A stretch of 64,000 nt of DNA from a virus, in the IMG/VR virus record IMGVR_UViG_3300010885_075474, positions 5,016 to 69,015 of that record. One strand, given 5' to 3'. A model generated the notes under the pieces. The model did no database searches. It was not told the DNA's origin and worked only from the letters and a program-made list of their open reading frames with translations. The position numbers were made by a program, and so were the translations under genes. Shown here piece after piece: positions 4,874 to 56,378 of the stretch (positions within the stretch are counted from its first letter, which is position 1; the number at the start of each line of letters is the position of its first letter).

Positions 4874-5128
4874 GTGATGCAAAAAGAAGTAAAAAGGCTT
4901 TTAGATGCCGCGATTAGATTAGAAGGCAAAATGAAGGCAACGTGTGGTGCAATAGCAGAAATTTTGCAGCCATATTTTGTGAATGAAATAAGCGTAGACT
5001 ATCAGCCGGGCGATGGGTTTTGTGTTATTTGGGAAGATGGTCAATATAAAGCGCCCAATAACGTGCCAGTTAGGGAGGTTTTAGAAAACATCAAAAAGGA
5101 TGAAACCTTCTATCTTTTTAACCAATAA
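4874..5128 (+). CDS. Hypothetical protein
   Basis: ORF in cluster. Confidence 0.6.
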   Translation: MMQKEVKRLLDAAIRLEGKMKATCGAIAEILQPYFVNEISVDYQPGDGFCVIWEDGQYKAPNNVPVREVLENIKKDETFYLFNQ

Positions 5129-13189: not shown

Positions 13190-16100
13190 TTATTTATTAT
13201 AATCTTTGAATAAAGCCTGGATATTTCGGCCAGTTATGATTGCTCGAATTTCGTCTTTAGAAAAGTTGTTTTTTTCAAGAAGCGCAATTGCTTCAGCCTT
13301 TGAAAGCCCTGCTTTTTGTGCTGAATCAAGTGCAAATTTAGCCTCTTTTAACACTTCATTGTACTCCTTGTTGGCATCCTCGTACAAACTTTTCAGTTTT
13401 TCGACATCTTTTTTATATTTCCAGCGGTCGTCAGTAAATATTTCGCGGCTATATTCTTTTTGCTGCTTCAATTCTTTGAATTTGCTGGATACTGCCTGCT
13501 CCATATTTCGGCGCTCGGTCTGCATACCCGCAAGTCCAAGTAGCACATCCTGCAATTGTTTCGGAGGACGATCACCAACCCCTTCTTGCGCAATTGCGCT
13601 GTACACGTCTAATCCAAACTTGATGATACCTGGTTGCAAATTGGATCCAATAAATTGCCCAAGTCTATACCAATCGCCAAGCCACCCTTTTCGCTCGTTG
13701 TAGATATTATCTTTGTTTCGGTCTGATTTATTGTTAATCACCTGGTCTATGGTATTGGCAGTAAGTTCAGGCGACAAAAATGGTTCAACAAAGGAATAAG
13801 CCGCGGATGCCATATCCTGGGCAAATGAATTATTCGATTTGGTTGCAAGTTGAATGATAGGCTTTTTCAAAAATGAGTATGGATCGGTATATGACAGATT
13901 GATAAATGCCATTTCCTTTCCATCCAGTTTTTGCCAGATCAAACTCGCTCGTTTCTGCCAGTCAAACATAAAATATCGGGCAGCATCCTCCTCCTCTTTT
14001 GTCACCCCGGCAAACCATTTGCCTAAAGCAGTTAAACCAACGCCCATCAATCCCTGGGCAATACCCATTCCAATTAAGCGGCGCACACCAATATGGCGCA
14101 AACGAGGATCCTTCAACTCCTGGCGTGTAATAGCTAATTGATTGTATGTTACCCGGAACATTTCAGCGGGAAACGCTACAAACGTGCCGACAAAAGGAAA
14201 TAATTGTATGTTTTTTACAATTTTAGGCACCTTGGAGTAGGTTGGCAGCATAGCAATCGTCAATTCAGCGGCGCGTTCTTCAACAGCCGTTTGCTCGGAT
14301 TTTGACAAATTATCGAAAGAATTGCCATATAGCGCCTTAGCATACCGAGCCTTTTCCGTTTCAAAAGCCAATACCCGGAAAAAATCATCTTCAGCGCCAT
14401 ACAATGCTTCCGCTCCCTTTTTTACAGCGTTGAGGCCGCCACCCAGATACTTTTCAGTCCAAGCATCAACCGCATCGGCATTCATGGCATCCATCAAACT
14501 GTTGATAGAACCAATATTGGCGCCGTTCCCCAGCAATCGAAGTTCAGTCAATCGCTCAAAATAGGCCGCTTGGTCAGCGGGTAGTTTCTTACCAAACGCT
14601 TCTACAAACGACTTAAATGCCTTAGATCCATGTCGGATATCATAAGCATTGTTTACGGCAAACCAAAGGTTGGAAACAAAGTTGCGCACATGCGTAACAG
14701 GCGACAATATGGTTTTGCCATACTTCACACTGGCAGATAACTGCGTGTAGGCCCGCCAGAACGGATCTTGCATTCCTTTCCCCTGGTAGTATTCCTCAAA
14801 CACCTCTTTGATCTCCGGAGTCGTATAGAGGCCGTTCAGCGGATCCAGAGTGCGATTACCTTCAGAAGAAATTTGAGCAACGGCATCGCCAGTAGGTTGC
14901 TTGAAAAACAAGTTGCCCATTTGCGATTCTCGCAGATCTGTTAAGAACAATTGATTTTCCAAAGCATTCACCGCCCGATAGAGCGATTTTGCAAAATTCA
15001 GGCGAGGATCGTGATATTCGCCCATTAATTCGCGAATTTCTGGCGCAATATCTTTTCGCTGCCGGAATGAATTCAAGTCCTTGGACCCTAATTTTCCCCG
15101 CGACAGCATGCTCACCGGAGAATCGTCGGTGTATAGGATGCTATTTAGTTCAGCCTCAATATTATTAAGAGTGTGGGTGAGCACATCAATCTTCGCCTGA
15201 TTATTTTCAACCACCTTTGACTGCTTTTGATACAATTCCGCAATGGCTTTCCTGGCGCCCACAATCTTTTTGACAGCAATTGGCAACCCCACTATGTCTG
15301 CATTGGTGAGCGCATCTACAACAGCAAAATCCTCAATTTCCATGTCCCGCGCTGCTTTCGCACGTTTTTTGAAATCGGCCAATCTTTGTTGCCAACTTAC
15401 AAGCGAATTGTCAAGCGACTTGTTTGGAACACCTTTGTTTGCCACAAACGCTGCTTGTTTCGCCAAGATGTCATTGATTTTATCCTGGGCGTCGGATATT
15501 TTTTGATCCAGATTCGCAATTGCATCAGCAATTTTGTCTTTTTGCGCCTGAATCTGATCGTCTATTTCATCAAGCCGCATAATCTGATCTTGCTCAATCT
15601 GCTTAATCTGATCTTCAGCCTGTTTTTGCAGGAAATCGCGAGCCTCTTGTAAGACGCGAGGATCTAAACTGTCCTTGTATTTTTCCCAGTCCTTGGTATC
15701 ATGCACTTTATAAGATCTATATAGGTATGTGCCAATTGCTCCCTTGTGCTGATTCAAAAAGTCGCGTATGGCATCTACTTCTTCAGCAGTGCGCTCAAAT
15801 GGCAATTTACCCAGCGCTTTTGTCAGGTCAACTCCTTGGTAGTTTTCGAGGTCGGCAGCATCCACGTCTATTCCGGCATTCTGCAAAACCGTGACAATCA
15901 TTTCACCGCCCGCAATCCCCGATTGCAGCAAGTCCAAAGAAACACTGTCTTGCAATTCTCGGATTTTCCGCAAAGCATCTCCCACCGCTGGAGGCAACAC
16001 GGTCCAATCGCCCGTTCCCCGCAGCACATTGTCAACCATGCGCCAGTGCGTATCGTTCAGATCCTTGCCATAGGCTTCTTTCATGGCAGATTCAAGTTCC

Positions 16101-19100
16101 CGGATATACTGCTCGCCTCGGTATATTTTTGCAGCAGCCCGGCCAATACGGCGCTCGTTTGCGGCATATAGGTCAATAGTCATAAGCCCTCGCGTCGTCA
16201 GGTTCTTTTGCCACCACTTCGCGAATCGCTTATTGTAACGATCCATGAATTTCCTCACCTTGCTTCGAGCATCCAGCATTTCGCCCTTGTCAATTCGCAG
16301 GGTGCCATAGCCCATTCTCAAAGCCATTGCTTCAACAGCCCGTTTCAAATCTGATTCATCCAGCCCTAAGTCGGATGCTGCCTGGGCAATCTTAGCATCC
16401 ATATTTTTCAGACCCTCTTTTTTCAGCTGATCTTTTAAAATATTCTTTGCGCTAATCATCCGGGCATGATAACTGGCCGTAACTTGTGGCGCCGCAGCAA
16501 AACGAGGTTTTTGATTCGTCATAACAGCCTGTTCCACATTACCTACCGGATCGCTGCTTTTTGCCATGGGCATCGCAGTCACATTCGATTCTACCTGTGC
16601 AGCGCCGCGCAAAATCATGGACGCCATCACCGTAGATATGCCGTTTTGATATTGCAATGGCAGGATAATCTCGCCATCGCGAATTTCCATATTTGACTGA
16701 TCCATGAATCGAACTGTGTGGTTTTTCAATTCCGGATACTGCGCAAAAAAATCGGGTGCATCAAATATTTCGCCGACAGTATAGGAAGATTCAGGAAACC
16801 TTTCTTGGCGCACATAAGTGCGTTGAATAGGCCGAAACTTCCATTCGCCCACGTCATTTTGATACCATCCGGTTGCGGCATATATTTTTTCATCGGGCAT
16901 CCCCGCTTCCTGCATGGATTTAGCTGCTTCAAAATTTGCCGCCATCACATTGCGACCAATATCCTCGGTGGCAGAAATTGGCGCATTCGTGCCAGTACGC
17001 CGGGCTTCCGCATTCCGGGCCTCAATCTCGCCGGGCGCTGAAGCGTATTCAATAATGCTCGCTTCCTGATCCTGTTTTAGTGCGGAATTAATTTCGTCCG
17101 TGCTTAATACTGCGAGATTTTTGAAGTCTTGCAATTCGCCAATATCGTCAAGCAATTCCTCTACTTCCGGATGTTCCTCGAAATATTTTGCCATGCTTTC
17201 GGGGCTGCCATTCATTTCCATAGAAACGATATTCGACAGCGCCGCGTCTACTTCCGGAGAAATCTTGCGGCCAACACCGGTGTTTGCGCCCTGATCAAAG
17301 CCTTCGATATTTTGAACGGCATGCTGGATCTCGTGAACCATAATGTTGTTCAACTTCTCTACATCGCCAAGGTCGGCGCTGGATACCTCTATCTGCTTGC
17401 CATCAAACGAGCCTTGGCCCGGATTGAGGGAATCGTTTACGACAACCTGAATATTTTTCAATTCAGGATAAGCCTTGTACAGACGAGGCGCATCAAATAT
17501 GTCGGATAGTGACCACGGGCCACCTTGCAGCAAATTTCCTGCATTCACATTCCCATACGGAATTTCAGAACGCCATTTGCCATCCCGACCGCGCTCCCAT
17601 CCGGTTGCAGCCCATATTTCGTCGGGCGTGGCGCCGTCCTGCTCCATCTTATCGGCAATCATTTTATCTTCCATCCGACCCGCCCTGGCAGCACCTCTTT
17701 CGCCTATGATCTGAAATTTGGCCATCTCGCCTATTTCGTCTTTCATTTGGCGTACATCCTCGGACGTTTCCTTCAGCAAGGTTTTGCCCCCGGTAAGCAA
17801 CACCGCCTGCCGGTTCACATACTGCTCCAAAGTCATATCCTGGGGATTGAAGCCAATTGCCCGCTGAATGCTTGACCACATATCGCTTAACCATCGCTTA
17901 AATTTCACCAATACAGTGCTGTTGGTGATAAAGGCGCCTTTTTCCCCGATTGCTTGGGCCAATGCTTCTTCCGCTTTTTCTTCCTCGCTCAAATGCGCAT
18001 ATGCCGGGTTCTCCAAAACGTCGGTGAAATAATTGGATTGCTTCACCAGGTCAATCCCTTTCGCGTACAGCGTGGGCTGATTTTTGCGCATCCAAGAATT
18101 CCAGATATGGCCAAATTCATGCACCGGCGTATCTGGCCGGGCCACGCGAGGATCAATATACACCTTGCCATTGCGCTCAAATCCCATCACCTGGCCCATC
18201 GCTTCAGTGTTTGGAATCTCGCCAGACGCCACCATTTCGTCTTTAACGGCATCAATTTCTTCCGTATTGGTTACGACAGTCACGTTTGGAAATGCCCGCC
18301 TGATGCGCTCAAATACCCGCCTGGTAGCTTTATCCATCTCGTTCTTGCTCATGCCGTGCAGCGCCTTGGCAGCATCCAATTGTTCCTGGAATGTGGCAGC
18401 CTTTTTAAATCGGGCCCGATTGCGGTATCGGCGTAATGTGGCAGCGGCCCGGGTGAGTAAGCCGCCCACCTCGCCATCTACTTTTTCATTCCGGACGTCT
18501 TGGGCATGGTCCAATCCATCGGCCCGGCGCTCGGATAATGCGGCGTCCAGTTCGATTTTCTTATCGGCAGCCATGGTCCAGGTTTGGCTGATTGGATCGT
18601 AGATTGCGCCTGCTTCGCGCAAGGCATCTGCATAGTGCCCGGCATCGCTTACTACAAACGATCCATCCGGCAGCACCGTCACGGTAGGACGGTTCAGTTT
18701 GTCGTTTGTTTTGGGCAATGACTCGGGTAATACCTTGTCTTTGGGTTCATCGCGCAGTTTCTCGCGCAATGACATCGCTTTGTCATAAGCCGCCTGCGTT
18801 TCAACATCGCGATCTCCTTGAAGATAGTTGAGCGATTTTGTGTAAGTCAAATTGTCAATTATTCCAGACCGCACCATTTCAGCCAAGTATTCAGGCGTCA
18901 ATTCATCTGGCAATGGCGCTTCCTGCATTTCCTCGTCTATCTTGTTGGATAGATCGGTAAGTTCTGCCGTGCCGGTGGCATTTTGAACTTGTTGCTCTAA
19001 ACTCGCGACATCCGACGCTGGAGCAGCAACTGATTGTTCTTTGGATAGTAGGGATTCTACTGCTTTTACAAGTTCGGGATTGCTACCATCTGCTTTTGCT

Positions 19101-22100
19101 TTGTGATAGGCATCAGATATTTGCTCACTTGCATTTCTACCTCCAGAACCATTATCATTTTCTGGAATAAGCCTATCAATAGCCCAAAAAAACGATTCTT
19201 TACCAGAGTTAAGCAACTCAACATATTTGTCGTCTAATGCTTTAGCCGTACTTTCTACGTCCTTTAATGCAGGGTTATCTACTGTGCCGCCTAAACTCGC
19301 GACATCCGACGCTGAAGCAGCCGTTTCGCTTCCCTCAATTTGAGTAGCAGATCCCGCTCCTGCTCCGTCTGCGGCTTGGTTTTCTCCTTGCCCTTGGACT
19401 TCAGGCTTATTGCTGCCAGTTTGCTCGCCAATTTGTTGTCGTATTTCATTGATTTTATCATGCGCCTGTGGCGTCATTTGTTGAAAATGAGGAATTTGGT
19501 TGCTAAATGGATCCCAGGCATCGTAATCCCGGATGAAAGCATCGGCATCAAAGTTTTCGCCTTCTCCATAAGGAGCGAGTGCTTTCTCAATAGATGAAAT
19601 GTCGGCAGATGAAAGTTGATCCAGGCTTTCCTGCTGCTTTTCCACTTCCTGCGCAACTTGCTCCGGCGTATGCTCCGGCCCGGCCCAGCGTTCAGCCGCA
19701 TCCTGGTTTTGAGCAGCCATGCTATTTTTCATGTGCTGAATCGGCCCCTTTGGATTGCTGCGTATGAAGTCCAGTATTTCGTTCTTCATATCAATTGCAG
19801 CGCTCGTACTCATAACGTCCGTACCGGCCACTTGGTCCTTATTGCCTGAATTCATTTGCGTCCAAATCTGCTCGGCCAAATCCTCAATAGATGCCCCATT
19901 CTTCGCTGAATAGTGCATGCGCACGGACGGATCCTGCATTTCGGCAGGGATGTCGGCGCTCAAAGCCGCCGAACTAATCCGAGTACCCGCAGCAAAAGCA
20001 TCCGCAATATGATCCTGCGTTGTTTGCGGATTAAACGAGCGTTTAATATTTTTCGTCGCAGAACCACCGCGTCGATTATCGGAAATAAATTCGTTGATAA
20101 GATTGTTTGCTACCCGATGGAATGACTCGTCAGCATTGGCTTCTTTGAAATTTGGATCAGCCAGGTTTTCCGCCACATAATCTCGGAATGCGGCATGATC
20201 CGATGGCGTCATTTCATCGCGCATCGTTTTGGTGACAGACGACAACGCAACATTTACCGTGTCGTCCACCAAGGATTCCTGATGCTTCTGTTGCGTTTCA
20301 ATGCTCGCCGATTGCTCCCGCTGAAGCCGGTTCAATTCGTTTTCGGCGGCCATCCGCTCATCGCCGATAGTTGTATCTACAACTTTCTTTTGCTGCTCTA
20401 TTTGAGCAGACAAATCAGTTGTTTCTGGCGTGTAGGCTTGTGCCACATCCGCAAACATGGTGCGTGAATCGGGCGCCACCTCGTTGATATTTGGTGTGCC
20501 TTCGCGCTCGGCAAGCGGAACAACGCGGCGCTCGCCCACAAAATCCTGCTTGGTCGTGGGACTTACAAATATTTCCTCGGCTTTCAGTTCTTTTTGCGGC
20601 GCTGCTTCTGGCGCTGCTTCAACAACAGGCGTTTCTTGCTGCACCACTTCAGCGGGCGCCATGATAGCCTGGATCTCCTCGTCGGCAGCCTTGTTTTCGT
20701 CTTTAAGGATTTTTTGCTGCGCCGTAGATGGAGAATCGCCGTAAGCCACTTGATTCGCCATTTTTTTCCATTCAAGCAGCGCCACCTTCGCCTTGTTTTC
20801 TTCAGACATATCTGATGGCAGCCGGTTATATATGTCGGACATTTGATTAACCCTGGTCATGCCTTTTGCCACATCTTCTTCGTTCAATGCTCCGTTTTCC
20901 TGCAATACCGAAAACGCCTTTTGCATGGCTTCCGGAATTTGAACGGCAGCCAGCATGGCAGATTGCGTGAAATCATTCACGCCCCGGCGCATAGCATCGC
21001 CGCCACCGACAAGAGCAGTGGTAAGCGTGGTGAGCAAAAATGTTTCAGCAGCATCTTCAGGGCTGATATCAGTGTCAAGATGCGAGCCATACACGCCATT
21101 GAAAACTGCATTGCTGGCAATATCGCCAAACATCTGCGAGTATTCCTCTTTCAACTCGCCTTTTACTTCATGCAAAACGGGCTTAAATGCAACCTTTGCC
21201 AAATCATAGCCCGACATTTTGCCTGCTAATGCTTTTGCTTCTTTCAGACCCACCGCTTTTGCCGCAGCAAACTTGGGCCCTACGCTTTCAATGTCACCCA
21301 TGTAGGCTTCAAGAACGCTGTTCAGCGCTGTTTTTGTCAAAGCAAATTGAGATGCCTGGGTATCATCCAGGTTTAGATCGCGTTGTGCTTCTTCATAGTT
21401 TTGGCGATGCTGCAAAGAAAATGCTGAAGCCGCAGCGCCCAATTTTGTGCCGCCGCCCAACCAGCGCATGACATAAAGATCGGCCACCACGTCGGCCAAT
21501 TTAAACCCCGCATTGTACACGCCAGTAAACCGGTTTTTCGCGTTTTTTGCCGCCCCGGAATCCACGAAATCTTTGATCTGATCCGTGGTCATTTTAATTA
21601 AACTACCATCCTTATACGCCTTGATTGGATTGCCTTTTTGGTCAACAACAACGTCCAAATCTTTATATGGCGCCGATTTTTCCCAAATAGGCCGTTCGTA
21701 TTTATCGGGCATCGGGAAGTTTACGTTCTCGAATTCCAGCAACTGATCGGCCCAGTCACCTAAAGCATTCGCAATCATACTGCCTGGCTGCACTTTTGGG
21801 CCAGGAATGGCGCCAATCAAAGTACGCGGAATAGAAGCAATACCGCCCACAACCTGGGCAATTTTCCGAGTAGACCAGTTCCATGCCGATCCGGCAATCG
21901 TGTTGTCAATGGCTTTTTTATTCGTTTCCATTTCCGCAAGCCGCTGCGCATATTCCGGATTGCTTTTCGCATATCCATCAAATTGCTGTTTTGCTTTTTG
22001 CGCAAGTTGGAGACCGCCCACATAATGCTTATATGATGGATCTTCAACTATTTGATTGAAGCGGTACTTCAAACCGTCAACATCCATCTCGCTCAAATTC

Positions 22101-22870
22101 GCAGGAGGATTTTCGATGGTTTGGCCCGCTTTAACCAGAAATTCAGACCAATCAGGCCCAAACTTTTGCTCTAATTTAACTGAAGCATTATATGCTTGAT
22201 TTTGGGCAATAGTTGAGGTTTTGCCCAGCACATCCAGATCAAACGTGCCTTGTCGCAATGCAGACTTGCTTGCGTTTATTTCTTTTTGAGCAAAGTTTTG
22301 ATGCTTTTTGCGCATAAATTCTTTACCCACCTGAAGCGGATCTTCCGCCCCGGTAAATTCTGTGGGTGCCTCAATTGGCTTAGGGATAATGTTTTGGCTT
22401 GTAGATTCAGCCGATATGCCGCCCATACCTTGTTTCATAAGATCGGCTTCAGTCAGCCCTGGCACTTCAGTAGTGGGCTGCTGGGCAGTCATTTGCCCAT
22501 CCGGAACGCCAAGGTCTTTTGCGTTTTGCTGGAAATCTTGCGCACCAATAGAATTTTCAAAAAAATCAGATGTAGAATTCCCCGTTGCAGTAGGGGCATC
22601 TGCATTTTCTTTTTGGGTAGATAAAGAGGGCGATTGCCCAACTTGTTGCTCGCTTCCACCAGGTTCTTTTTTTTTTAGATCGTTAATGTTTGTGACAAAC
22701 TCATTTAAAGACATGTCGGCAGCGCCATGCTTTTTCAATACGCTATAAAGGCGCTCAGCACCACCTTGGGCAAATACGGAATTCCTGAAGTTCTCGTAGT
22801 TTACATTTTCGCCTTGCAACAGGTCGTTTTCCAGCATTTGCTGGTGTAAGTCTTTAATTGGATCGCCCAT
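13190..22870 (-). CDS. Giant ejection / large polyvalent protein (two LPD23-like domains, two zincin HExxH motifs)
   Basis: 3226 aa; ATGWERGRDGKWRSEI and ATGWYQNDVGEWKF; HEFGH; HEIQHAVQ..EGF; GEIEARN. Confidence 0.85.
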   Translation of the reverse strand: MGDPIKDLHQQMLENDLLQGENVNYENFRNSVFAQGGAERLYSVLKKHGAADMSLNEFVTNINDLKKKEPGGSEQQVGQSPSLSTQKENADAPTATGNSTSDFFENSIGAQDFQQNAKDLGVPDGQMTAQQPTTEVPGLTEADLMKQGMGGISAESTSQNIIPKPIEAPTEFTGAEDPLQVGKEFMRKKHQNFAQKEINASKSALRQGTFDLDVLGKTSTIAQNQAYNASVKLEQKFGPDWSEFLVKAGQTIENPPANLSEMDVDGLKYRFNQIVEDPSYKHYVGGLQLAQKAKQQFDGYAKSNPEYAQRLAEMETNKKAIDNTIAGSAWNWSTRKIAQVVGGIASIPRTLIGAIPGPKVQPGSMIANALGDWADQLLEFENVNFPMPDKYERPIWEKSAPYKDLDVVVDQKGNPIKAYKDGSLIKMTTDQIKDFVDSGAAKNAKNRFTGVYNAGFKLADVVADLYVMRWLGGGTKLGAAASAFSLQHRQNYEEAQRDLNLDDTQASQFALTKTALNSVLEAYMGDIESVGPKFAAAKAVGLKEAKALAGKMSGYDLAKVAFKPVLHEVKGELKEEYSQMFGDIASNAVFNGVYGSHLDTDISPEDAAETFLLTTLTTALVGGGDAMRRGVNDFTQSAMLAAVQIPEAMQKAFSVLQENGALNEEDVAKGMTRVNQMSDIYNRLPSDMSEENKAKVALLEWKKMANQVAYGDSPSTAQQKILKDENKAADEEIQAIMAPAEVVQQETPVVEAAPEAAPQKELKAEEIFVSPTTKQDFVGERRVVPLAEREGTPNINEVAPDSRTMFADVAQAYTPETTDLSAQIEQQKKVVDTTIGDERMAAENELNRLQREQSASIETQQKHQESLVDDTVNVALSSVTKTMRDEMTPSDHAAFRDYVAENLADPNFKEANADESFHRVANNLINEFISDNRRGGSATKNIKRSFNPQTTQDHIADAFAAGTRISSAALSADIPAEMQDPSVRMHYSAKNGASIEDLAEQIWTQMNSGNKDQVAGTDVMSTSAAIDMKNEILDFIRSNPKGPIQHMKNSMAAQNQDAAERWAGPEHTPEQVAQEVEKQQESLDQLSSADISSIEKALAPYGEGENFDADAFIRDYDAWDPFSNQIPHFQQMTPQAHDKINEIRQQIGEQTGSNKPEVQGQGENQAADGAGAGSATQIEGSETAASASDVASLGGTVDNPALKDVESTAKALDDKYVELLNSGKESFFWAIDRLIPENDNGSGGRNASEQISDAYHKAKADGSNPELVKAVESLLSKEQSVAAPASDVASLEQQVQNATGTAELTDLSNKIDEEMQEAPLPDELTPEYLAEMVRSGIIDNLTYTKSLNYLQGDRDVETQAAYDKAMSLREKLRDEPKDKVLPESLPKTNDKLNRPTVTVLPDGSFVVSDAGHYADALREAGAIYDPISQTWTMAADKKIELDAALSERRADGLDHAQDVRNEKVDGEVGGLLTRAAATLRRYRNRARFKKAATFQEQLDAAKALHGMSKNEMDKATRRVFERIRRAFPNVTVVTNTEEIDAVKDEMVASGEIPNTEAMGQVMGFERNGKVYIDPRVARPDTPVHEFGHIWNSWMRKNQPTLYAKGIDLVKQSNYFTDVLENPAYAHLSEEEKAEEALAQAIGEKGAFITNSTVLVKFKRWLSDMWSSIQRAIGFNPQDMTLEQYVNRQAVLLTGGKTLLKETSEDVRQMKDEIGEMAKFQIIGERGAARAGRMEDKMIADKMEQDGATPDEIWAATGWERGRDGKWRSEIPYGNVNAGNLLQGGPWSLSDIFDAPRLYKAYPELKNIQVVVNDSLNPGQGSFDGKQIEVSSADLGDVEKLNNIMVHEIQHAVQNIEGFDQGANTGVGRKISPEVDAALSNIVSMEMNGSPESMAKYFEEHPEVEELLDDIGELQDFKNLAVLSTDEINSALKQDQEASIIEYASAPGEIEARNAEARRTGTNAPISATEDIGRNVMAANFEAAKSMQEAGMPDEKIYAATGWYQNDVGEWKFRPIQRTYVRQERFPESSYTVGEIFDAPDFFAQYPELKNHTVRFMDQSNMEIRDGEIILPLQYQNGISTVMASMILRGAAQVESNVTAMPMAKSSDPVGNVEQAVMTNQKPRFAAAPQVTASYHARMISAKNILKDQLKKEGLKNMDAKIAQAASDLGLDESDLKRAVEAMALRMGYGTLRIDKGEMLDARSKVRKFMDRYNKRFAKWWQKNLTTRGLMTIDLYAANERRIGRAAAKIYRGEQYIRELESAMKEAYGKDLNDTHWRMVDNVLRGTGDWTVLPPAVGDALRKIRELQDSVSLDLLQSGIAGGEMIVTVLQNAGIDVDAADLENYQGVDLTKALGKLPFERTAEEVDAIRDFLNQHKGAIGTYLYRSYKVHDTKDWEKYKDSLDPRVLQEARDFLQKQAEDQIKQIEQDQIMRLDEIDDQIQAQKDKIADAIANLDQKISDAQDKINDILAKQAAFVANKGVPNKSLDNSLVSWQQRLADFKKRAKAARDMEIEDFAVVDALTNADIVGLPIAVKKIVGARKAIAELYQKQSKVVENNQAKIDVLTHTLNNIEAELNSILYTDDSPVSMLSRGKLGSKDLNSFRQRKDIAPEIRELMGEYHDPRLNFAKSLYRAVNALENQLFLTDLRESQMGNLFFKQPTGDAVAQISSEGNRTLDPLNGLYTTPEIKEVFEEYYQGKGMQDPFWRAYTQLSASVKYGKTILSPVTHVRNFVSNLWFAVNNAYDIRHGSKAFKSFVEAFGKKLPADQAAYFERLTELRLLGNGANIGSINSLMDAMNADAVDAWTEKYLGGGLNAVKKGAEALYGAEDDFFRVLAFETEKARYAKALYGNSFDNLSKSEQTAVEERAAELTIAMLPTYSKVPKIVKNIQLFPFVGTFVAFPAEMFRVTYNQLAITRQELKDPRLRHIGVRRLIGMGIAQGLMGVGLTALGKWFAGVTKEEEDAARYFMFDWQKRASLIWQKLDGKEMAFINLSYTDPYSFLKKPIIQLATKSNNSFAQDMASAAYSFVEPFLSPELTANTIDQVINNKSDRNKDNIYNERKGWLGDWYRLGQFIGSNLQPGIIKFGLDVYSAIAQEGVGDRPPKQLQDVLLGLAGMQTERRNMEQAVSSKFKELKQQKEYSREIFTDDRWKYKKDVEKLKSLYEDANKEYNEVLKEAKFALDSAQKAGLSKAEAIALLEKNNFSKDEIRAIITGRNIQALFKDYNK
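18997..19321. repeat. 31-bp direct repeat pair (1 mismatch) 294 bp apart
   Basis: CTAAACTCGCGACATCCGACGCTG(G/A)AGCAGC at 18997-19027 and 19291-19321. Confidence 0.9.
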
Positions 22871-30682: not shown

Positions 30683-31345
30683 TTATGAATTTGGTTGCTC
30701 GTTAATATCCTTGGTATTGGCCAAGTCGTCTGCCGGAATAGAACGCTGGCCCTGGAAGTGCTGTTTCGCCATGTCAATCGCTTTGGCAACGATTGAATCT
30801 TCATAAGGAAGTTCAGTGTCGTTATCCAGTGTGCTTGGCGCCTGGGCGATCAAGCAGCGCACAGCGCATACCGGTTCGGAAATATTCAGGATATACAGAG
30901 CCGGGCCAGATGATTGATATTCCACGTAGAAATACGGATAGCCGCCCATCAAATATTCCACGCCCAGCATCGAAAAGCGCGAGCGCATACGGATGTACGG
31001 GCTTTTTCCTTTTTCCGGAAACACGGATTGGATTGCCCAGTCGTTGTCCAGCGCTAACACCTTTGGCAGTTGTAATTTATACAGCCCGCTGTCGGCATCC
31101 TTTGTAGGTACTCCAACAAACGGGCTGTATATGGATGATGTTACACCATAATTTGGTAGCACCGCAGCAGATCCGGAATAGTTCCGTTCCGCCGCGATGC
31201 CGTCAAAAACACCGGATTTTACGGCTGTTGCCATGGCAACATCGAAATATGCTTCGATGTCCACCCGCTTTACGTTCGCATCTTGGGATAGTTTGCCACC
31301 CAGAACGTAAAGGAGAATCAAGTCTATGGCATTTGCCTTGGTCAT
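30683..31345 (-). CDS. Tail ring protein
   Basis: Size and position among ring genes. Confidence 0.6.
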   Translation of the reverse strand: MTKANAIDLILLYVLGGKLSQDANVKRVDIEAYFDVAMATAVKSGVFDGIAAERNYSGSAAVLPNYGVTSSIYSPFVGVPTKDADSGLYKLQLPKVLALDNDWAIQSVFPEKGKSPYIRMRSRFSMLGVEYLMGGYPYFYVEYQSSGPALYILNISEPVCAVRCLIAQAPSTLDNDTELPYEDSIVAKAIDMAKQHFQGQRSIPADDLANTKDINEQPNS

Positions 31346-31420
31346 ATCACTGGCGTTTTGATGTAGCGTTTTTCTTCCGGAAAAGATTCTTTACTTTGAA
31401 GATTAATTTCGGAAGCAATT

Positions 31421-31945
31421 TCAATTTTTTTTTTCGTCCAAGCTTGGATCCAGTTCGGTAGCCCCTTGTTCAGGATAAGGCACATTTGGATCTTCAACAG
31501 CGCTTTTTGCAACCGCAGCGGCTACATCATTGGAACTGCCAAGAACTGGCTTACCAACAATGCTGTAAATGCTTTGGCTCCAAAACGACACCGAACTGAA
31601 TATGAATGTCAATAGCGTGCCTACCAGCGGCATTCCCTTGATAGTGGCAAATATTACCGTCACGCCGATACCAATACCAATGGCCTTCAATGGGGCATCA
31701 AGTTTTAGTTTTCGGAACGCAGGAAATAAATTTGCCAAGTAATGCGCAAGGACTGTCAGGATACCAATGATGGCGGCCATCCCTTCCTTGGAGTAGTACC
31801 AAGTAAGATCACCGTCCTTTGGGAACTGGATCGTCGGAAGCGTCACAGTGTTGTTCAGCGTGTCAATGACGACCTGGCAGAACATGTCCGTGACAAAAAG
31901 CAGCATAATGGCTGCGAGCAGGAATAATTTTAAATTGTGTTTCAC
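31421..31945 (-). CDS. Membrane protein: signal peptide plus three TM helices (holin-like)
   Basis: GTG start; ...VTDMFC|Q cleavage; three hydrophobic segments; ends at an A10 run. Confidence 0.65.
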   Translation of the reverse strand: MKHNLKLFLLAAIMLLFVTDMFCQVVIDTLNNTVTLPTIQFPKDGDLTWYYSKEGMAAIIGILTVLAHYLANLFPAFRKLKLDAPLKAIGIGIGVTVIFATIKGMPLVGTLLTFIFSSVSFWSQSIYSIVGKPVLGSSNDVAAAVAKSAVEDPNVPYPEQGATELDPSLDEKKN

Positions 31946-54700: not shown

Positions 54701-55259
54701 TCCAAAGCATTTATTTTCAATAATATTTTCGTTGTCTGTCTGGAGGTATATATGGGGCCGGGGGAGTCGCCCGCCGAAATCCGAAAACGCATTTCAAAAT
54801 GCCCCCAGGGGTGCAAAAATTTTTCGGGCTACTTTTTGGCCTGTTTTTGCCTTAATAACAGCACATACGCGCGTTTTGTGGGTACTTTCAAAAATGGTAT
54901 CTTTCGCAGTATTTTGCGCTATGTTATTGATTCCCATCTAATTGCATTGCATTTCAAAACCAGCGCAAAGAAAAACGAACGCAAAAAAACACCAGGATTT
55001 TTTTTTGTCGATCGATCTAAACCAGCGCCAGCGCCCACCTGCTTTATTTGTATGTACCATTGCGCACACAAATAAACAGATGTATATACAAGTATTGCGG
55101 GCATCGTAATACCTGCCTAATCTATTCGCTTTTACAATCGTGTAGAATGTTTGCGCCTGCACATTGATACGTTGTGTTTAATTGATGCGAGCAACGGAAT
55201 AGGCTAAATGTCGCTTAATAGTCATATTTGCACATTAGCAAAAAATAGTTAAATAAATG

Positions 55260-56347: not shown

Positions 56348-56378
56348 CTTTTTTTTTCAAACTTTCAATTTCTTAAAA

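Follow-up and report, generated by a model that had tools for sequence, protein, structure and literature searches.

The gpG/gpGT tail assembly chaperones of lambda-like phages are produced with the help of a -1 programmed frameshift at a heptamer such as G GGA AAG, and the frameshift product is the longer and rarer one. In dnaX of Thermus thermophilus, transcriptional slippage on nine A/T residues leads to the tau and gamma proteins at about 1:1, and reversed arrangements of this gene have been proposed as candidates (PMC5009743). RNA polymerase slippage on A/T runs also gives C-terminally different products from Shigella spa13 and mxiE and from Citrobacter tssM (PMC5009743, PMC4256274), and polymerase stuttering in Ebola GP (A7), paramyxovirus P/V and potyvirus P3N-PIPO (GA6) yields two proteins sharing the N-terminus (PMC5009743). 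Here we describe a run of ten A residues (A10) in the gene for a giant virion protein of a phage. It lies in a 64-kb stretch, called the window throughout, which covers positions 5,016 to 69,015 of the 69,015-base single-contig genome IMGVR_UViG_3300010885_075474 from IMG/VR. We propose with moderate confidence that this run, which is conserved and marks the border between an N-terminal domain (N-domain) and a linker, serves for programmed slippage, RNA polymerase probably realigning there.

As in dnaX, whether by slippage in Thermus or by the -1 frameshift at A AAA AAG in Escherichia coli, this locus is predicted to yield, besides the full-length protein, a shorter one that begins in the same way, and what switches between them is an uninterrupted stretch of nine or more A residues inside lysine codons. 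Relatives of the locus in Cellulophaga phages carry A AAA AAG in register, as does E. coli dnaX, and fused and reversed gene arrangements have been described or proposed among the dnaX homologues, too (PMC5009743). On the other hand, dnaX codes for a clamp-loader subunit and the gene described here for an unrelated giant phage virion protein; the short form amounts to about two thirds of the long one in dnaX and would amount to about 3% here; and in Thermus dnaX both alternative frames stop at once, whereas here the -1 frame is open for 14 to 110 codons. Moreover, slippage has been demonstrated in dnaX, while at this locus it is predicted from sequence. With gpG/gpGT the locus would share a phage structural module in which two proteins with a common N-terminal part are made in a ratio set by recoding, although there the frameshift product is longer and rarer, the site is a heptamer instead of a run of nine or more, the genes belong to siphovirus and myovirus tails and not to a giant internal or ejected protein of podovirus type, and neither sequence nor fold relates them to the giant protein. 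The editing sites of the RNA viruses resemble it in that a short homopolymer in one viral gene gives two proteins with a common N-terminus; they differ in that RNA-dependent polymerases of the viruses themselves act there on runs of 6-7, compared with a run of 9-11 in a double-stranded DNA phage. In the literature searched, supplements excluded, no description was found of this site or of any recoding site in large polyvalent proteins.

The A10 run and its three reading frames

The giant gene occupies 13190..22870 on the minus strand and is an open reading frame (ORF) of 3226 amino acids in frame 0. The run (22667..22676, minus strand) reads CTA AAA AAA AAA GAA, or L65 K66 K67 K68 E69, in the context GAT CTA AAA AAA AAA GAA CCT; it corresponds to nucleotides 195-204 of the gene within codons 65-69, and its first A is the third base of codon 65. 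Codons 1-64 (22679..22870, minus strand) code for the N-domain, which would be common to both predicted products. Beyond the run, frame 0 continues with EPGGSEQQVGQSPSLSTQKENADAPTATGNSTSD, a low-complexity linker rich in Ser, Pro, Thr, Gly and Glu. The -1 frame, which is entered either by insertion of one A in the mRNA or by a -1 ribosomal slip, reads RTWWKRATSWAIALFIYPKRKCRCPYCNGEFYI from 22667 on, that is, a tail of 33 codons (RTWWK...EFYI) followed by TGA at 22568-22566 (22566..22667 with the stop, minus strand). The +1 frame, accessible if one A is lost or two are gained, has a tail of 58 codons and ends at the TGA at 22491-22489 (22489..22665, minus strand). A sequence-only reading of the window had described the run, the linker and the -1 stop at 22566 exactly as they are found here, and its estimate of a product of roughly 100 residues agrees with 68 + 33 = 101 amino acids. 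It had also pointed to A-AAA-AAG as the frameshift signal. These letters do occur in the run, but out of the frame-0 register, in which the heptamer is A AAA AAA, a sequence of the X XXY YYZ type.

An assembly error at this position was considered and rejected, as Logan contigs of one public DNA run show neither a difference nor a gap across the site, though they are possibly derived from the same source data. That run is the only public one with this DNA; it consists of DNA stored as contigs, and contigs drop rare length variants. The idea of a terminator or promoter element was likewise discarded, since the run is a sense-strand A-run and always in frame within lysine codons.

Taken by itself, the window is mildly remarkable and only suggestive, and the case rests on the homologues. 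There are two sense-strand runs of A10 or longer in the window versus 0.36 expected (P=0.0245, codon-preserving synonymous shuffles of 54 ORFs), and with the codon usage of this gene the peptide DLKKKE would be written with ten or more consecutive A residues at a probability of 0.054. Ranked among all -1 tails of the gene, the 33-codon tail is at the 88th percentile, about 12% of positions having one at least as long; its openness gave P values of 0.003-0.036 against a codon shuffle and of 0.26-0.40 against synonymous resampling. The GC content of the window is 46%, and AAA, the favoured lysine codon in this genome, makes up 62% of the lysine codons. The genome leans generally to A-runs: in the same kind of shuffles, sense-strand runs of A7 or longer numbered 25 against 15.4 expected (P=0.0035, 54 ORFs), and 36 of the 74 KK pairs across the window are written AAAAAA.

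Conservation of the run in related loci

A word-indexed search returned two relatives only, P0002 (69% identity) and P0003 (30%), and a profile-free scan of 1.84 billion protein representatives gave 25 matches, consisting of the window's own protein and P0004-P0027. From the 26 non-self proteins (P0002-P0027) we left out P0022 and P0026, which match elsewhere in the protein and do not belong to the family. The remaining 24 have the N-terminal architecture in common, with an exact KKK in 22 and EKKN in two at the border between the N-domain of about 60 residues and the linker. In the 22 carriers this KKK is found between residues 55 and 82, and KKK occurs just 1-3 times per protein of about 3000 residues. 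K66 and K67 alone are invariant within the first 237 residues of the 22-protein alignment. One locus (L004:3011-3300) has a second KKK 11 residues past the first (VKKKSTTVSPSVQKKKPTSS), and only the first lies within a run of A8 or longer.

On the DNA level, blastn and tblastn searches of the N-terminal region against phages found no homologue DNA, nor did locus searches with giant-protein queries in viral, metagenome and genome contigs, apart from an IMG/VR profile search. The latter yielded 40 loci, in 18 of which the giant ORF starts with this N-domain. All DNA-level counts cover these IMG/VR loci and the window, the DNA of the 24 protein homologues lying outside the sample. The homologous run is present in 18/18 loci, as A9 in two (L019, L028), A10 in 13 and A11 in three (L002, L014, L030), and in all lineages it is located at codon 37-92 of the giant ORF. 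Breaks of the run by AAG codons, which the sequence-only reading had named as a finding that would speak against it, do not occur: every lysine codon at the site is AAA in all 18 loci, although elsewhere in the same genes the share of AAA is as low as 15% (L011, L012, L020) or 23% (L007), and 42-79% in the others. Additionally, flanking A residues lengthen the run beyond nine in 16 of the 18. All three codon phases were seen, as in GTA AAA AAA AAA GAG, TAT AAA AAA AAA AAT and GAA AAA AAA AAC (E-K-K-N), and CAA AAA AAA AAA GAC is a further example. The occurrence of three phases means that nucleotides are conserved and not a codon pattern.

For statistics, the 18 loci and the window were collapsed to 14 lineages by omitting L009, L010, L012, L014 and L020 as close copies; L007 and L011 are 82% identical and every other pair at most 44%. 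Given the peptide and the codon usage of each gene, the probability of a run at least as long as observed was 0.0006-0.45 per lineage. Combined over the 14 lineages, this results in a Fisher p of 8.5e-6, which, like the combined values below, overstates independence because the lineages share ancestry. In 728 kb of the 40 loci (L001 left out, being on the same contig as L002), 17 sense-strand runs reach A10 or more, 16 of them at this site, and no run reaches T10. Among five whole records, this site is the sole A10/T10 in three and another record has a second, intergenic run, while one has no A10/T10 because its site is A9. The only A10 or longer run of the 40 loci away from the site is intergenic (L008:1724-1733; A9 in L014:1725-1733), A/T-rich and directly upstream of an ATG. 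The other 22 loci lack the N-domain, the gene being open at its 5' end in 6 and starting with a different N-terminus in 16. None of them showed a run of A9 or longer at the 5' end of the gene, nor was any matched by a profile of the N-domain.

These data bear on the idea that selection acts on a KKK motif of the protein, for instance a protease site or a docking patch, and that the A residues were inherited by chance or through local codon bias with no recoding involved. Conservation of the peptide in 22 of 24 homologues and the preference of the window genome for AAA and A-runs would be in line with it. Nevertheless, the members lacking KKK have EKKN, which in L029 is written GAA AAA AAA AAC, an A10 in another register; AAA is used three times out of three where it accounts for only 15-23% of the lysine codons elsewhere in the gene; the run is stretched past nine by flanking A residues; and neither the open -1 frame nor the ORFs that are split precisely at the run in three isolates (see below) would be explained. 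A motif without recoding is therefore already disfavoured, and we regard it as highly improbable.

The -1 frame downstream of the run

In the 14 lineages, the -1 tails comprise 33, 21, 36, 52, 44, 52, 18, 25, 32, 14, 26, 110, 29 and 35 codons, each of them at percentile 0.67-1.0 of the -1 tails of its own gene. Compared with a local shuffle of the frame-0 codons, this openness gave a Fisher p of 2e-7 to 2e-10 in windows of 30, 45 and 60 codons and of 4e-11 in those of 80 or more, and with synonymous resampling the values were 1e-4 to 4e-7. The -1 frames of the homologues thus do not close at random under either null; random closure had been the other finding held to count against the sequence-only reading. 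Little or no excess was detected for the +1 frame across the family (Fisher p 0.013-0.82). Inside subfamilies, the length of the -1 ORF is fixed, with 52 codons in five loci and 44 in three.

The run could also serve merely as an attenuator, with the poly-A/poly-Lys stretch lowering the output of a costly protein through slippage or stalling and the truncated products being functionless waste. Its position early in the gene in all lineages, where abortion is cheapest, would suit such a role, as would the lack of conservation of the tail sequence (see below); in addition, iterated AAA codons reduce protein output (PMC4363877). But waste products give no reason for 14-110 open -1 codons against local nulls or for a constant length of the -1 ORF within subfamilies, nor does attenuation require the exact position at a domain border. 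Furthermore, in the split state of the Cellulophaga phages the run is needed in order to produce the giant protein and not to reduce it. We consider attenuation as the only function very improbable.

The -1 tails of different lineages are not alignable, and in close pairs the residue changes in the -1 frame and in frame 0 numbered 13 vs 13, 7 vs 4 and 6 vs 4. In composition they are alike: R and K make up 20% of the residues, the net charge ranges from +2 to +10, Gly is abundant, and the aromatic residues F, Y and W reach 19%, compared with 12% for the -1 frame at large. Only this basic, aromatic and Gly-rich make-up recurs in the homologues, and not a conserved sequence. A conserved cysteine motif was examined as a candidate and rejected; the CxCPYC emphasized in the sequence-only reading is absent from the other 13 lineages, and Cys makes up 2% of all -1 tails. 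Its proposal of recoding into a short -1 isoform that shares the N-domain is borne out as far as the kept run and the open -1 frame in homologues are concerned, whereas the cysteine motif and the suggested membrane-binding helix of the tail are unsupported. The influence on stoichiometry or targeting that it put forward is hypothetical. In the pair L007 and L011, nucleotide identity is about 30-63% in the N-domain, rises to 83-90% over the stretch that begins with the run and ends at the -1 stop, which is located 52 codons past the run in both, and falls to 33-57% directly beyond. Such a profile fits dual coding.

Split and fused genomic states

A tblastn search with the C-terminal 706 amino acids found the Cellulophaga phages phi18:3, phi19:3 and phi13:2 (Pachyviridae, Baltivirus), which are the named phages nearest to the window by the giant gene, as well as one Pseudoalteromonas phage, one Pelagibacter phage and the unclassified record MW574966.1. 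In the three Cellulophaga phages, a small ORF of 87-103 amino acids, consisting of an N-domain, KKK and a 34-residue tail, lies upstream of the giant ORF, and the latter is annotated from a TTG start. The records label the small ORFs 'hypothetical' or 'structural'. The regions in question are L042:13310-13640 (phi18:3), L044:4056-4380 (phi19:3) and L045:4119-4400 (phi13:2). Each stretch contains a sole run of A9 or longer, TTA AAA AAA AAG ACG, where the N-domain ends, and this is the only junction between the two ORFs. The giant frame opens five codons ahead of the run and reads KKKDVSESTSQ..., the usual continuation in the family. The small ORF has A AAA AAG in its own register, so that a -1 shift or one extra A leads into the giant frame. 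The N-domain profile matches the small ORFs of phi18:3 and phi19:3 with E about 1e-3; that of phi13:2 has an unrelated N-domain, yet its run and the sequence downstream are identical. The small and the giant ORF look like one recoded gene joined at the A9. The homologue of the giant C-terminal part in phi18:3, gp123, is annotated as a virion protein detected by tandem mass spectrometry (MS/MS), the MS/MS notes covering the giant ORF only.

When the N-domain alignment was used to look for small proteins, six were returned, among them two frame-0 fragments, one protein with QKKS and one ending short of the site. P0037, a metagenome protein, continues in frame from an N-domain of the L029 type into a tail that closely resembles the -1 tail of L029. 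In P0039, also from a metagenome, an N-domain of the L019 type is followed in frame by a basic, aromatic tail, which is assigned to the -1 type by its character only. The states of the Cellulophaga phages, P0037 and P0039 may be real run-length variants.

Replication slippage in the DNA might create A9, A10 and A11 subpopulations in which the giant protein is toggled on and off, or fused and split, and the genomes would be samples of these states. Three states have indeed been seen or inferred, namely in frame (18 loci and the window), one A fewer (three Cellulophaga isolates) and -1-type in frame (P0037, P0039), and even between the close relatives L008 (A10) and L014 (A11) the in-frame length differs, in this case by a T-to-A change. 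Such phase variation is at odds with the finding that the run is in frame in each of the 18 IMG/VR loci as well as in the window and that the Logan contigs of the one run have no length variant, although contigs drop rare ones. Alone, it would also leave the specific openness of the -1 frame unexplained. Finally, viable isolates in the split state still have the giant protein in their virions, as noted from MS/MS in the record, which requires slippage at expression or internal initiation. Phase variation as the whole explanation is, in our view, quite improbable.

Proposed mechanism

The run is conserved, the -1 frame is open, and fused and split genomic states exist. To judge from these features, the phage most likely makes a short protein of about 100 residues and the giant protein from one gene. 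Three marks of a transcriptional slippage site are found here: an A run of about nine or more in a coding sequence, conservation beyond that imposed by peptide and codon usage, and an open alternative frame. The late genes of such phages are assumed here to be read by the host RNA polymerase. During transcription, the RNA:DNA hybrid would realign on the homopolymer, and some mRNAs would thereby carry one extra A. Ordinary translation of these mRNAs would exit frame 0 after KKK, read the 33 codons of the -1 frame and stop, giving a product of about 101 amino acids composed of the N-domain and a basic, aromatic tail, while unslipped mRNA would be translated into the protein of 3226 amino acids. 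The same short product would result if ribosomes slipped by -1 on the heptamer A AAA AAA, which is in register, and this possibly contributes. Because the N-domain is common to both products, both may address one partner, where the short form would compete with the giant protein or assemble together with it and in this way fix the ratio between them; we infer this ratio-setting role of the shared domain by analogy with dnaX or gpG/gpGT.

Realignment of the polymerase is favoured because the minimum of nine and the mode of ten fit an RNA:DNA hybrid better than a 7-base site, and because one added A gives exactly the frame that is open. The hybrid measures 9-10 bp, and bacterial RNA polymerase slips efficiently on nine A or T (PMC5009743). 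Alternatively, the polymerase may be faithful and the ribosome may make the same two products, either by -1 programmed frameshifting on A AAA AAA or by sliding on the poly-A lysine track. In support of this, every lineage has A AAA AAA in register irrespective of the codon phase of its run, the small ORF of the Cellulophaga phages offers the classical A AAA AAG in its own register, from where a -1 shift leads to the giant frame, and ribosomes of E. coli slide on iterated AAA codons (PMC4363877). The frame that is specifically open is the -1 frame, as a ribosomal slip would demand; this openness cannot discriminate, because insertion of one A in the mRNA makes the same frame be read. What speaks against the ribosome is that a heptamer needs seven bases, yet the run always has at least nine, with a mode of ten that matches the hybrid (PMC5009743). 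Besides, folding of the 80 nucleotides downstream of the run in the 14 lineages revealed no consistent structure (z -2.2 to +1.8, window -0.25, against mononucleotide shuffles; pseudoknots and upstream elements, including upstream stimulators, were outside the scope of the search), in contrast to the stem-loop downstream of the E. coli dnaX site. The missing consistent structure fits a mechanism that works without a stimulator. We think a purely ribosomal origin, the main rival, rather unlikely.

Several observations weigh against the proposed polymerase slippage or limit it. Polymerase and ribosomal slippage are not told apart by these data. The sequence of the -1 peptide is not conserved and varies as much as or more than frame 0, and its basic, aromatic make-up is partly automatic, following from an acidic frame 0 rich in Ser, Thr and Gly. 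The window's own -1 tail is weakly supported in the synonymous resampling, and the shared ancestry of the lineages has been mentioned above. Identity between L007 and L011 after the run could be due to recombination at a module border, as illustrated by the swapped N-domain of phi13:2. Errors of sequencing or assembly in homopolymers could account for the A9 of the Cellulophaga phages and for the variant run lengths deduced for P0037 and P0039; the Cellulophaga phage genomes were reportedly pyrosequenced. The feature is real and strongly conserved, and it would add to the known class of programmed slippage sites.

The giant gene and its surroundings

On the minus strand of the window, the giant gene is accompanied by genes for the portal, the large terminase, virion proteins and a muzzle-like protein. 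The muzzle protein is a hallmark of the Crassvirales (crAss-like phages); the crAss_MUZ_C score in the window was 26.3 bits, slightly below the cut-off of 27, and the named phages nearest by the giant gene belong to the Pachyviridae. Large polyvalent proteins of phages and conjugative elements carry LPD families of Pfam. The giant protein matches LPD23 (PF18838; E=8.4e-19, 67.6 bits versus a Pfam cut-off of 27), and it combines the attributes of this class, namely an LPD domain, several domains, more than 2000 amino acids and an origin in a phage or conjugative element. Its C-terminal part matches phrog_22602, a 'virion structural protein', with E=4.2e-44. The columns H1584, E1585, G1587 and H1588 of an HExxH type (residues ~1581-1590) are invariant in 22 homologues, and residues 1730-1771 were noted together with the LPD23 domain and these columns. 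The likeness to polyvalent proteins consists of LPD23 and invariant HExxH-type columns in a multi-domain virion protein of more than 3000 amino acids, and the giant protein is of the polyvalent kind, possibly with a metallopeptidase module. Residues 1-68 were modelled by AlphaFold2 as five helices with a mean predicted local distance difference test score of 84.2; Foldseek found no match for the model of the N-domain in the PDB at E<=0.001. By eye, the N-domain appears as two repeats of about 28 amino acids.

Other A-runs in the window

The only other A10 of the window (31425..31434, minus strand) reads GAC GAA AAA AAA AAT TGA and is situated two codons before a stop. It ends a hydrophobic, membrane-protein-like ORF of 161 amino acids (31421..31906, minus strand; 174 from an upstream GTG), for which there was no PHROG match and no match in five related IMG/VR records. 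In the alternative frames (31342..31424, minus strand), the -1 extension has 25 amino acids, LKLLPKLIFKVKNLFRKKNATSKRQ, with the stop at 31349-31347, and the +1 extension 26 amino acids, EIASEINLQSKESFPEEKRYIKTPVI, with a TGA at 31344-31342 that overlaps the ATG of the next gene at 31345-31343. Logan contigs cover this site without differences. The end E-K-K-N-stop is found in the window protein and in 3/3 full-length homologues (62-71% identical), while the preceding 8-10 residues vary; this conservation is on the protein level only, as a search of metagenome contigs with P0044, one of these homologues, returned no DNA. An A9 at L002:1427 was tried as a homologue of the second site and rejected, as there are stops in all frames around it. 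The second A10 is possibly a slippage site giving C-terminal extensions. Like the spa13 site it precedes a stop, with extensions reaching the next gene, although spa13, mxiE and tssM are cellular genes of injectisomes and of the type VI secretion system and not phage genes. An A9 on the plus strand (2606-2614) inside an ORF of 100 amino acids reads GCA AAA AAA AAC (A-K-K-N), with the same K-K-N pattern as the other sites, and T9 runs are present at 54998-55006 and 56349-56357.

Implications

As a tentative joint reading, an entire clade of podophages of aquatic bacteria, cultivated and uncultivated, might use an A9-A11 recoding switch at two or more genes, here the giant ejected polyvalent protein and the small membrane protein ending in EKKN-stop. 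Genomic changes in length would toggle between a fused state with A10, a split state with one A fewer (Cellulophaga) and a split state with one A more (P0037, P0039), and polymerase slippage would buffer every state, so that both proteins would always be made. The short N-domain protein might then be a new dosage or assembly factor for the packaging of a protein of about 350 kDa into the capsid.

If slippage at the giant gene is true, it would be a widespread and previously unannotated recoding event in structural genes of phages, and it would add a case in which an alternative frame is held open instead of closed. The annotation of Baltivirus would have to be corrected, the 'hypothetical' ORF of 87-103 amino acids and the giant ORF starting at TTG being one recoded gene. 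For gene callers, a conserved A9-A11 inside KKK or EKKN may serve as a cheap screening signature. Since the family includes the cultivable models phi18:3, phi19:3 and phi13:2, the proposal is directly testable, and, if it holds, it would help to understand how the amount of giant internal polyvalent proteins is set in phages and how they are loaded.

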